Under the pieces are notes generated by a model, which was not told where the DNA came from, made no database searches, and saw nothing but the letters and a program-made list of their open reading frames with translations. Position numbers and translations under genes: made by a program. DNA of 16,531 nucleotides from a virus: the UHGV virus genome UHGV-1602447; one strand, given 5' to 3'. Shown in pieces: positions 7,183 to 8,062 of this stretch (within the stretch, counting starts at the first letter, position 1; the number at the start of each line of letters is the position of its first letter).

Positions 7183-8062
7183 CGTGTTCACCCTCACGAA
7201 CTTTCAGGTAGGTATTGTCGTTAAGCAGGAAATCAAATCCCTTTTTGTGCCAGACGGTTCCGCGTTGATGGTTTGGGCGTTCTTCGAACATCCATCGGCA
7301 ATTTTCGCCTACGTAGCTCAAATAATTTCTCCAGTCCTGCATCGTGAACCCATGCCCGTCAAGCTGGCGGGTTATCACTCCGGCTTTGCGCCAGAACGTT
7401 CGGATCTGGTTTTTACGCTTGTCATTCAGTGCGCGGATTCTTGGCGCTTCAGGAAGGATTTCGTGGTAAGCATCGACAACATCCTGACAGCTGACGGAAG
7501 GTTTTTTCTTGTCAGACTTTTTGTCTGCTGTAGCACTCTCTAATACGTCAGTATTAGAGATATTATTTATATTATTGTTTATGGACAACTGTTGGACAAC
7601 CGTTGGACAATCTCCGCTGAGAGCCGCGCCATTACTGGTGTTTGCGTTGGACAACCGTTGGACAATCGTTGGACAATTTTTTGACTGAAAATCGTCATAT
7701 TTAACGATTGTAAACAGGCTAAATTTCTTCCCCATCGCGCAAATATTAAGCATCCCTTTCGACTCAAAAGTCCGTAATAAGCTCCGAACTTTGTTGTCTG
7801 GGATGAATGTTTCTCTGACCAGCGACGGGCGTCCAGTTATCATCTGACCGCGATCAACAGTTATCGGACCGATATCCGTATTGACGACAGTAGATTCGTG
7901 ATTAGCCTTGAGGATTAAGTGAAGCCAAAGATGTACTGCCTGAGAGTCCTTGTAGAGCCTGCTGTCCATAAACTGGCGGTGTATAGAGACATACCCCATA
8001 CTGGATGCCTCCTGATGTTGTACAGGGTTATGCCTGTAATCAGCTAACTTAACGACGCCCAT
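7172..8062 (-). CDS. replication initiation protein (O-like replisome organiser) containing the origin iterons
   Basis: ORF track 296 aa. N-terminal winged-helix-like region, low-complexity Asn-rich linker encoded by the iteron segment, conserved C-terminal domain. Positionally equivalent to lambda O / P22 gene 18. Start could alternatively be the internal MGYVSIHRQF. Confidence 0.7.
   Translation of the reverse strand: MGVVKLADYRHNPVQHQEASSMGYVSIHRQFMDSRLYKDSQAVHLWLHLILKANHESTVVNTDIGPITVDRGQMITGRPSLVRETFIPDNKVRSLLRTFESKGMLNICAMGKKFSLFTIVKYDDFQSKNCPTIVQRLSNANTSNGAALSGDCPTVVQQLSINNNINNISNTDVLESATADKKSDKKKPSVSCQDVVDAYHEILPEAPRIRALNDKRKNQIRTFWRKAGVITRQLDGHGFTMQDWRNYLSYVGENCRWMFEERPNHQRGTVWHKKGFDFLLNDNTYLKVREGEHDDR
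7582..7676. repeat. origin of replication iterons: six copies of GTTGGACAA in two triplets with 11-bp spacing
   Basis: TGGACAA at 7582, 7593, 7604 and at 7648, 7659, 7670; triplets separated by a 37-bp GC-rich spacer. Flanked by AT-rich DNA (7538-7581 and 7677-7730) and a perfect palindrome CTCTAATAC-gtca-GTATTAGAG (7537-7558). Confidence 0.7.

Follow-up and report, generated by a model that had tools for sequence, protein, structure and literature searches.

The closest described relatives of the element considered here are the origins predicted in phages such as Sf6, HK620 and L. In the Shigella phage Sf6 (GenBank AF547987) a rep_origin at 28385-28480 is annotated as putative in gene 43, and in HK620 (AF335538) an equivalent two-piece rep_origin is found in gene O. 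The genome paper of phage L presents "six imprecise repeats of 11 bp (TGTCCAACGGA)" in gene 18 as the likely origin, and the genetics of this phage show that its replication region has a specificity of its own (PMC8022706). All the public origin calls for the Sf6/HK620/L class are worded as 'putative'. [quoted passage not shown] In SPP1 the initiator G38P, its replisome organiser, binds repeats (the AB boxes) that lie inside gene 38 beside an AT-rich unwinding element, and theta replication has been reconstituted on a 356-bp fragment of oriL (PMC6316719, PMC5737612).

The locus described here lies in a 16,531-nt stretch of viral DNA (the window, in what follows), where repeats, an AT-rich block and a palindrome all fall inside a single ORF, 7172-8062 on the minus strand (Table 1). 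The explanation that best accounts for these features is that they constitute the vegetative (theta) origin of a lambdoid/P22-like prophage of the Sf6-HK620-L replicon type, located in the part of the initiator gene that codes for the linker, and we regard this putative assignment as very probably correct. The initiator gene is 98-99% identical to those of mEpX2, HK633, HK629, HK106, HK75, IME10 and Sf6, with the window as a whole being a mosaic of such phages. In the case of Sf6, gene 43 is 98.4% identical to the initiator gene and the annotated rep_origin (96 bp; L001 3411-3506) corresponds exactly to window 7582-7677; the two elements are 98-99% identical and differ by a few inter-core substitutions. 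HK620 shares with the window the layout of two times three 11-bp units, the AT block, the palindrome and the C-terminal half of the protein (98.7% nucleotide identity over the C-terminal part), whereas the N-terminal domain that it has in common with HK022 differs from that of the window (48% identity) and goes with another repeat unit (Table 1). Phage L has the same core as the window, an N-terminal domain that is 72% identical (the L/ST160 group) and a DnaB-type helicase partner; it differs in its inter-core bases (GA versus TT/GT) and in its host, Salmonella. Both the element and its reading as an origin are therefore already public in the form of predictions, and its position will not surprise a specialist.

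Table 1. Features of the putative origin and its surroundings in the window, followed by the 11-bp units of the different initiator classes
Feature	Position	Strand	Remarks
Replication initiator gene	7172..8062	-	296 aa; organised like lambda O
N-terminal domain coding part	7697..7996	-	aa 23-122; winged-helix-like; presumed iteron-binding module
Iteron triad 1	7645..7677	-	distal to AT block; three 11-bp direct repeats ATTGTCCAACG ATTGTCCAACG GTTGTCCAACG
Spacer between triads	7612..7644	-	33 bp, relatively GC-rich; exactly three unit lengths
Iteron triad 2	7579..7611	-	adjoins AT block; ATTGTCCAACG GTTGTCCAACA GTTGTCCATAA
AT block	7561..7581		21 bp, 95% A+T (4.8% GC); candidate DNA-unwinding element
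Palindrome	7537..7560		perfect; TCTCTAATAC-nnnn-GTATTAGAGA
C-terminal helical domain coding part	7184..7504	-	aa 187-293; presumed helicase-recruiting module
DnaB-type replicative helicase gene (phage)	5746..7182	-	Pfam DnaB_C E=7e-60, DnaB E=8e-31
Iteron unit, window, Sf6 and L			TGTCCAAC
Iteron unit, HK022 and HK620			GATTACCAGCA
Iteron unit, Pantoea PA-1			GATTACCAACA
Iteron unit, Klebsiella Chronis			GATGTCCAGCC
Iteron unit, KPC2phi6.1			GAATGCCAACA

The initial annotation of the window had reported six copies of TGGACAA in two triplets with 11-bp phasing, and this is precisely what the sequence contains: the copies start at 7582, 7593, 7604, 7648, 7659 and 7670 on the plus strand. Written on the minus strand, they form six 11-bp units of the type (A/G)TTGTCCAAC(G/A) arranged as two triads. 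Five of the six copies conform to GTTGGACAA, while the copy at 7582 beside the AT block is degenerate (TATGGACAA); this final unit of triad 2 merges into that block. An 8-mer recurs five times within 100 bp at the repeats, whereas 200 dinucleotide-preserving shuffles gave 2-3 occurrences at most, and the cluster is thus far beyond chance. A search of the whole 16.5-kb window for exact TTGGACAA recovered no copy elsewhere and no second iteron cluster. The 37-bp GC-rich spacer of the initial annotation is the core-to-core stretch 7611-7647, with 59.5% GC versus 46% for the window, and the AT-rich flanks that it had recorded are likewise present, the AT block on one side and a less extreme stretch at 7677-7720 (29.5% GC) on the other. 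All six sites share one register (0/11/22/66/77/88). Three 11-bp units amount to 11 codons, which may be the reason that the units come in threes. The unit of the window class contains a partial dyad, GTTG..CAAC, which is absent from the units of the other classes (TTACCAGCA, TGTCCAGCC and ATGCCAACA); hence, the sites are best read as asymmetric direct repeats.

Some further signals in this region were considered and set aside. Pairing of the two triads with each other in single-stranded form (z=-3.3) stems from the quasi-palindromic unit of the window class, the units of other classes being devoid of self-complementarity. An inverted repeat formed by 7662-7670 and 7703-7711 was judged to be a chance occurrence, since Sf6 and other relatives have a different base at an inter-core position on which it depends. 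Promoter-like matches inside the iterons, in which TGGACA resembles a -35 hexamer, were rejected as promoters, with four found against 3.2 expected. Similarly, the mechanically called ORFs that run across the origin (7509-7688 on the plus strand, 7579-7767 on the minus strand and 7184-7543 on the plus strand) have no support.

Comparison with related loci revealed the level at which the repeats are conserved. The sample drawn from IMG/VR comprised 80 loci with N-terminal domains 62-99% identical to that of the window, which together with the window and ST160 yielded 73 unique full-length genes. The layout 0/11/22/66/77/88 (spacings of 11/11/44/11/11) is kept in 72 of these 73 genes. No unit departs from the core TGTCCAA in any of 40 unique origin blocks of 99 nt, whereas unit positions 0, 1 and 10 vary (3 of 18 invariant in the same blocks). 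The spacer between the triads is fixed in length and poorly conserved in sequence, with only 4 of its 33 columns invariant. As 11 is not a multiple of three, each base of the core occupies the third codon position in one unit of every triad, and these third positions are invariant in 13 of 15 cases in the cores versus 12 of 120 in the N-terminal domain of the same sequences (Fisher p=1e-9, a value that is indicative only, as the sequences are phylogenetically related). In a second class, found in Klebsiella-type phages with the core TGCCAAC, 11 of 15 third positions are invariant and all are conserved at a level of at least 0.9, against 5 of 33 columns in the spacer. Conservation that is independent of codon phase rules out a repeat maintained purely at the protein level, and selection acts on the iteron cores at the DNA level. 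The absence of the repeats from otherwise near-identical initiator genes, which the initial annotation had named as evidence against an origin, was not encountered: all such relatives keep one, two or three triads.

Five or six classes of the N-terminal domain could be distinguished, each with its own 11-bp unit at an equal position in the gene and with an equal layout. A direct comparison of the window with the HK022 gene illustrates how these classes are exchanged: the two share 98.7% nucleotide identity in their final 389 nt (palindrome through stop codon) and only about 25% (ungapped) upstream of the AT block, with the mosaic junction falling in the AT block. This drop in identity delimits one module consisting of the N-terminal domain and the iterons, and a second one consisting of the palindrome, the C-terminal domain and the helicase. 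Lambdoid O genes classically have such a two-module organisation. The number of triads also varies in a regular manner. Public homologues of the initiator are 274, 296 or 318 aa long (277 or 299 aa for the Salmonella class); these lengths correspond to one, two and three triads and differ by in-frame steps of 66 bp. The triad adjacent to the AT block is always kept, including in single-triad variants such as L025 and P0069, which parallels the AT-proximal iterons of lambda. Gain or loss of a single 11-bp unit causes a frameshift and a truncated initiator, as in L011, L033 and the 159-aa P0004 (173 member sequences). Homologue searches with the N-terminal domain alone retrieved mostly truncated proteins, and thereby exposed these frameshift variants.

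The AT block is conserved across all classes. In the adjoining palindrome the initial annotation had recognized a perfect inverted repeat and its start at 7537, while its extent needs correction: the arms are 10 nt long (7537-7546 and 7551-7560) rather than 9, they enclose a loop of 4 nt with 100% complementarity, and the element ends at 7560 rather than 7558. An alignment centred on the palindrome favours pairing. In an unbiased scan, every locus examined had a perfect inverted repeat (9-10 bp, 4-nt loop) at the matching gene position (nt 506-524 of the gene, or 455 in one N-terminally truncated match). The arms have at least 11 different sequences among the loci scanned. Among 13 distinct variants in the centred alignment 97% of cells are paired, and both sides have changed in 9 of 10 pairs; none of 500 shuffles reached the observed level of pairing, and slid controls gave 29-47%. 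The inner nine pairs (pairs 5-13) show Watson-Crick combinations only, with no G-U intermediates, which is a better fit to a dyad symmetry in DNA than to an RNA hairpin. The palindrome types are common to several iteron classes and follow the C-terminal module, and single compensated pair changes are also seen inside one C-terminal type (e.g. Chronis versus L139). Thus, selection maintains the symmetry of the palindrome at the DNA level, and its function may be in origin opening or helicase loading.

The protein encoded by the initiator gene matches PHROG 345 ('replication initiation O-like', E=1.7e-84). Its DNA-binding domain is N-terminal and is joined to the C-terminal domain by a linker for which the origin codes. 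An AlphaFold2 model, built on a shallow alignment of 20 sequences and with a mean pLDDT of 66, shows a helix-turn-helix with a beta wing for residues 23-122 (pLDDT 76-88) and a helical structure for residues 187-293 (pLDDT about 80-90). Residues 123-186 in between, encoded by window 7505-7696, i.e. the origin, have a pLDDT below 50, and this linker is accordingly predicted to be disordered. The proposal of the initial annotation that the origin lies within the initiator gene and encodes its inter-domain linker thereby agrees with the model as well as with the annotation of Sf6 and HK620 and the phage L paper (PMC8022706). Foldseek searches of the PDB with the N-terminal domain recovered winged-helix DNA binders only, namely TubR, HlyU/ArsR, the CodY C-terminal domain, MarR, DnaD and the staphylococcal RepA N-domain, all with E>=0.02; at this level the matches offer a fold-level hint, and loosely support a winged-helix fold. 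Sequence searches of the PDB with the whole protein and with an N-terminal domain profile found nothing significant, and NCBIfam gave no match.

The N-terminal domain had no Pfam match even at E<=10, including Phage_rep_O (PF04492), a family that readily detects lambda O (E=5.7e-36) and P22 gp18 (E=6.9e-38). BLASTP of the window initiator against lambda O also showed no similarity. The designation 'O-like' in the initial annotation consequently holds for the organization of the gene and fails for homology of the N-terminal domain. The relationships of this domain are instead with SPP1 G38P (tblastn E=2e-7; pairwise BLASTP E=6e-13, with 28% identity over 110 aa) and with the PHROGs labelled 'DnaD-like helicase loader', and there are matches to PHROG 2514 and 186. 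The C-terminal part yielded only a sub-threshold Pfam match to DUF7376, and it is weakly similar to the C-terminal part of P22 gp18 (25% identity, pairwise E=2e-4), a likeness consistent with a DnaB-type helicase as its partner.

Such a helicase is encoded by the next gene, which has both the DnaB and DnaB_C domains of Pfam, as anticipated in the initial annotation, and which overlaps the 3' end of the initiator gene by 11 bp. The initiator/helicase pair of the window is matched by the arrangement of genes 43 and 44 in Sf6. Upstream of the initiator gene are a small ORF, a CII-family gene and a cro-sized ORF with no Pfam match, and the repressor position is occupied by a gene whose product has an S24 peptidase domain. 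Together these genes make up a lambdoid early-right operon. A scan of the whole window at the Rfam gathering thresholds recovered no family.

The above observations suggest a potential mechanism for the initiation of replication. Early rightward transcription (the minus strand here) would express the initiator, whose N-terminal winged-helix domain, as a relative of SPP1 G38P, would bind the six 11-bp direct repeats, probably as one monomer per unit in a cooperative head-to-tail arrangement with a single 11-bp register. The resulting nucleoprotein complex could distort the DNA and thereby melt the adjacent AT block. The palindrome might help to open the origin, hold it open or serve as a loading point, while the C-terminal domain would recruit the phage DnaB-type helicase directly, without a loader of the lambda P type. 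It is possible, though rather doubtful, that this architecture works by another mechanism than the lambda O-some. On the 11-bp sites, monomeric winged-helix N-terminal domains might polymerise head-to-tail and keep one helical register across the three-unit spacer, and the number of triads (one, two or three) might tune the readiness with which the origin fires. The palindrome, which travels with the C-terminal domain/helicase module, might be extruded as a hairpin or cruciform and act as the loading site of the DnaB-type helicase.

Other explanations of the repeats have to be weighed against their role in an origin. They might be bound by the initiator mainly for regulatory or structural ends, such as autoregulation, titration, handcuffing or a fork barrier like SPP1 oriR, with initiation occurring elsewhere. 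There is a precedent for this in SPP1, where G38P binds oriR, a second repeat site that is thought to stall forks and not to fire first (PMC6316719). The iteron copy number, moreover, varies among natural variants of the present class, and the initiator could bind the repeats, and selection preserve them, for some purpose besides initiation. However, the iterons of the window form a single cluster, they are coupled to the AT block and the palindrome in the order of the proven lambda origin and to an AT-rich block as in SPP1 oriL, and the iteron/N-terminal domain module and the AT block move together in mosaics, all of which makes a mainly regulatory or structural role quite unlikely. It is less likely still that the repeats merely reflect a duplicated peptide (CPTxVQxLS) in a flexible linker with no function in the DNA. 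An 11-residue peptide is indeed encoded twice, once by each triad, and duplications and deletions of 66 bp do occur, but the 11-bp unit places each copy in a different frame, conservation tracks the 11-bp phase and not the codons, disorder is predicted for the part of the protein that contains the peptide, and other classes have different units in an equal layout; indeed, the codon-phase test has already largely refuted this explanation. Equally little credence can be given to the notion that the stretch is chiefly a boundary for recombination or between modules, with the repeats persisting because mosaic exchange and slippage are concentrated there. While the HK022 junction in the AT block and the common slippage by 11 and 66 bp are consistent with it, this leaves the strict core conservation, the fixed layout and the class-linked change of iterons unexplained, and a boundary at this point is in any case expected of an origin, as the N-terminal domain and the iterons must be inherited together.

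The palindrome calls for a separate consideration, in that it might be an RNA-level or transcriptional signal, for instance an intrinsic terminator for antisense (plus strand) transcripts, rather than a part of the origin. On the plus strand it is followed by a T-rich run and is flagged as terminator-like by a simple scan, and in lambda, too, an A-rich run immediately precedes the palindrome on the sense strand. Against this, the stem contains only three G-C pairs, its covariation in pairs 5-13 is purely of the Watson-Crick type, no promoter for antisense transcription is known here (the promoter-like matches being at background level), and no Rfam family matches it. An antisense terminator is accordingly unlikely, and is a weaker alternative to a role of the palindrome in origin opening or helicase loading.

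What the present analysis adds to the public predictions is an explanation of the 11-bp period through kinship with the G38P family, along with the codon-phase test, the covariation of the palindrome and the series of triad copy numbers. The replicon type is a common one: the origin segment is present in 372 of 5,426 complete E. coli genomes, and the type is also found in many prophages of Shigella, Salmonella, Klebsiella and Serratia. Knowledge of the origin and its specificity module should be useful for the annotation of prophages, including the recognition of dead ones with 11-bp frameshifts, and for building phage-derived vectors. It also bears on defence systems that sense phage origins, of which Lamassu is an example, at the lambda origin (bioRxiv 10.1101/2025.04.02.646746). 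The comparative results yield clear bench hypotheses on this replicon type.

The putative origin of the window has much in common with those of lambda and P22. All three have it in the linker-coding part of the initiator gene, and the N-terminal domain and the iterons form one specificity module. The comparison with P22 and other lambdoid origins suggested in the initial annotation shows, for lambda and P22, an identical order along the direction of transcription, namely iterons, an AT-rich block and a palindrome with a short loop, which in lambda is GTCAGAGAATTC/GAATCCTCTGAC with a 4-nt loop and in P22 CCCCCT/AGGGGG, in both cases after the AT-rich block. P22 resembles the window further in its DnaB-type helicase and its weakly similar C-terminal domain, while lambda uses the P loader with the host DnaB. 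Where the window has six 11-bp units, both have four iterons, each about 19-20 bp long and internally dyad-symmetric, at spacings of 20/24/23. The initial annotation had contrasted the 11-bp units with lambda iterons of 18-19 bp, and while this contrast is real it does not amount to a new peculiarity, since the 11-bp period follows from the G38P-like N-terminal domain.

A more distant parallel is offered by the RepA_N plasmid initiators (e.g. pSK41 RepA), whose origin also lies inside the rep gene, with a winged-helix N-terminal domain that binds iterons in mid-gene and a C-terminal domain that recruits replication factors. Their likeness to the window initiator is at the level of fold alone (Foldseek matches to 4pt7/4pql at E of about 0.1), with no sequence relationship shown. 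In contrast, SPP1, a phage of a Gram-positive host, has a homologous N-terminal domain and also a comparable disposition of sites: in gene 38 a tandem array with a period of 11 (4.6 copies) directly follows the part coding for the N-terminal domain, and is itself followed by the AT-rich unwinding element. SPP1 differs in having a single array (about 4.6 units) where the window has two triads, in showing no equivalent of the palindrome, in the C-terminal domain of G38P (Phg_2220_C, which has no match in the window protein) and in its separate helicase loader G39P, whereas in the window the helicase gene directly overlaps that of the initiator. The initiator of this locus thus combines an N-terminal domain of the G38P type, the presumed origin binder, with a C-terminal module of the P22 type.

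Steps of 66 bp preserve the reading frame, so that the initiator may carry one triad of iterons, two or three (relatives' loci L025, L052 and L131; public proteins P0069, P0035 and P0142, of 274, 318 and 277 aa, respectively), the single-triad form being found widely among genomes of E. coli and Shigella. Gain or loss of a single 11-bp unit shifts the frame and truncates the initiator (loci L011 and L033; proteins P0004 and P0005). Public data often contain genes shortened in this way, with the 159-aa P0004 comprising 173 member sequences; they could be dead prophages, or artefacts of assembly or slippage.

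Comparison of the N-domain helix across the iteron classes in the alignment A1, which covers only 5-6 classes, points to a possible recognition code between residues at about positions 89-101 and 77-80 and the iteron bases. In this alignment the pairings are V(K/R)S and TGTCC, VQY and TTACC, and VKY and (G/A)TGCC; GRN accompanies CAGC, with GRP or GRH accompanying CAAC.

Features in and around the initiator gene (window positions)
Feature	Position	Strand	Remarks
Homing-endonuclease-like ORF	5082-5687	-	domains HNH_3 and AP2 (Pfam); flanked by ninB and the helicase gene
Folded single-stranded segment	7525-7700	-	MFE -24 kcal/mol, z=-3.3
Origin palindrome	7537-7560	+	followed by T-rich AT block
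AT block	about 7561-7581		mosaic junction in comparison with HK022 (L003)
oop-like unit, motif	8203-8235	-	one mismatch to pO/5'-oop motif
CII gene	8243-8539	-	
oop-like unit, hairpin	8267-8294	+	strong, terminator-like, with T-run; within CII gene 3' end

When folded as single-stranded DNA, the origin segment can form a long-range stem that pairs one triad with the other, as the quasi-palindromic character of the unit GTTGTCCAAC allows. The units of other iteron classes lack this self-complementarity, and the pairing is therefore probably incidental.

At the 3' end of the CII gene lies an oop-like antisense RNA unit, whose motif was matched to the pO/5'-oop motif that PMC3349717 gives as conserved.

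Over its last 389 nt (3' end) the window's initiator gene is 98.7% identical to those of HK022 and HK620, and the upstream part of the gene is unrelated to theirs in DNA sequence. The palindrome and adjoining AT block score as intrinsic-terminator-like for antisense transcription, and the same palindrome/T-rich geometry is found in lambda.
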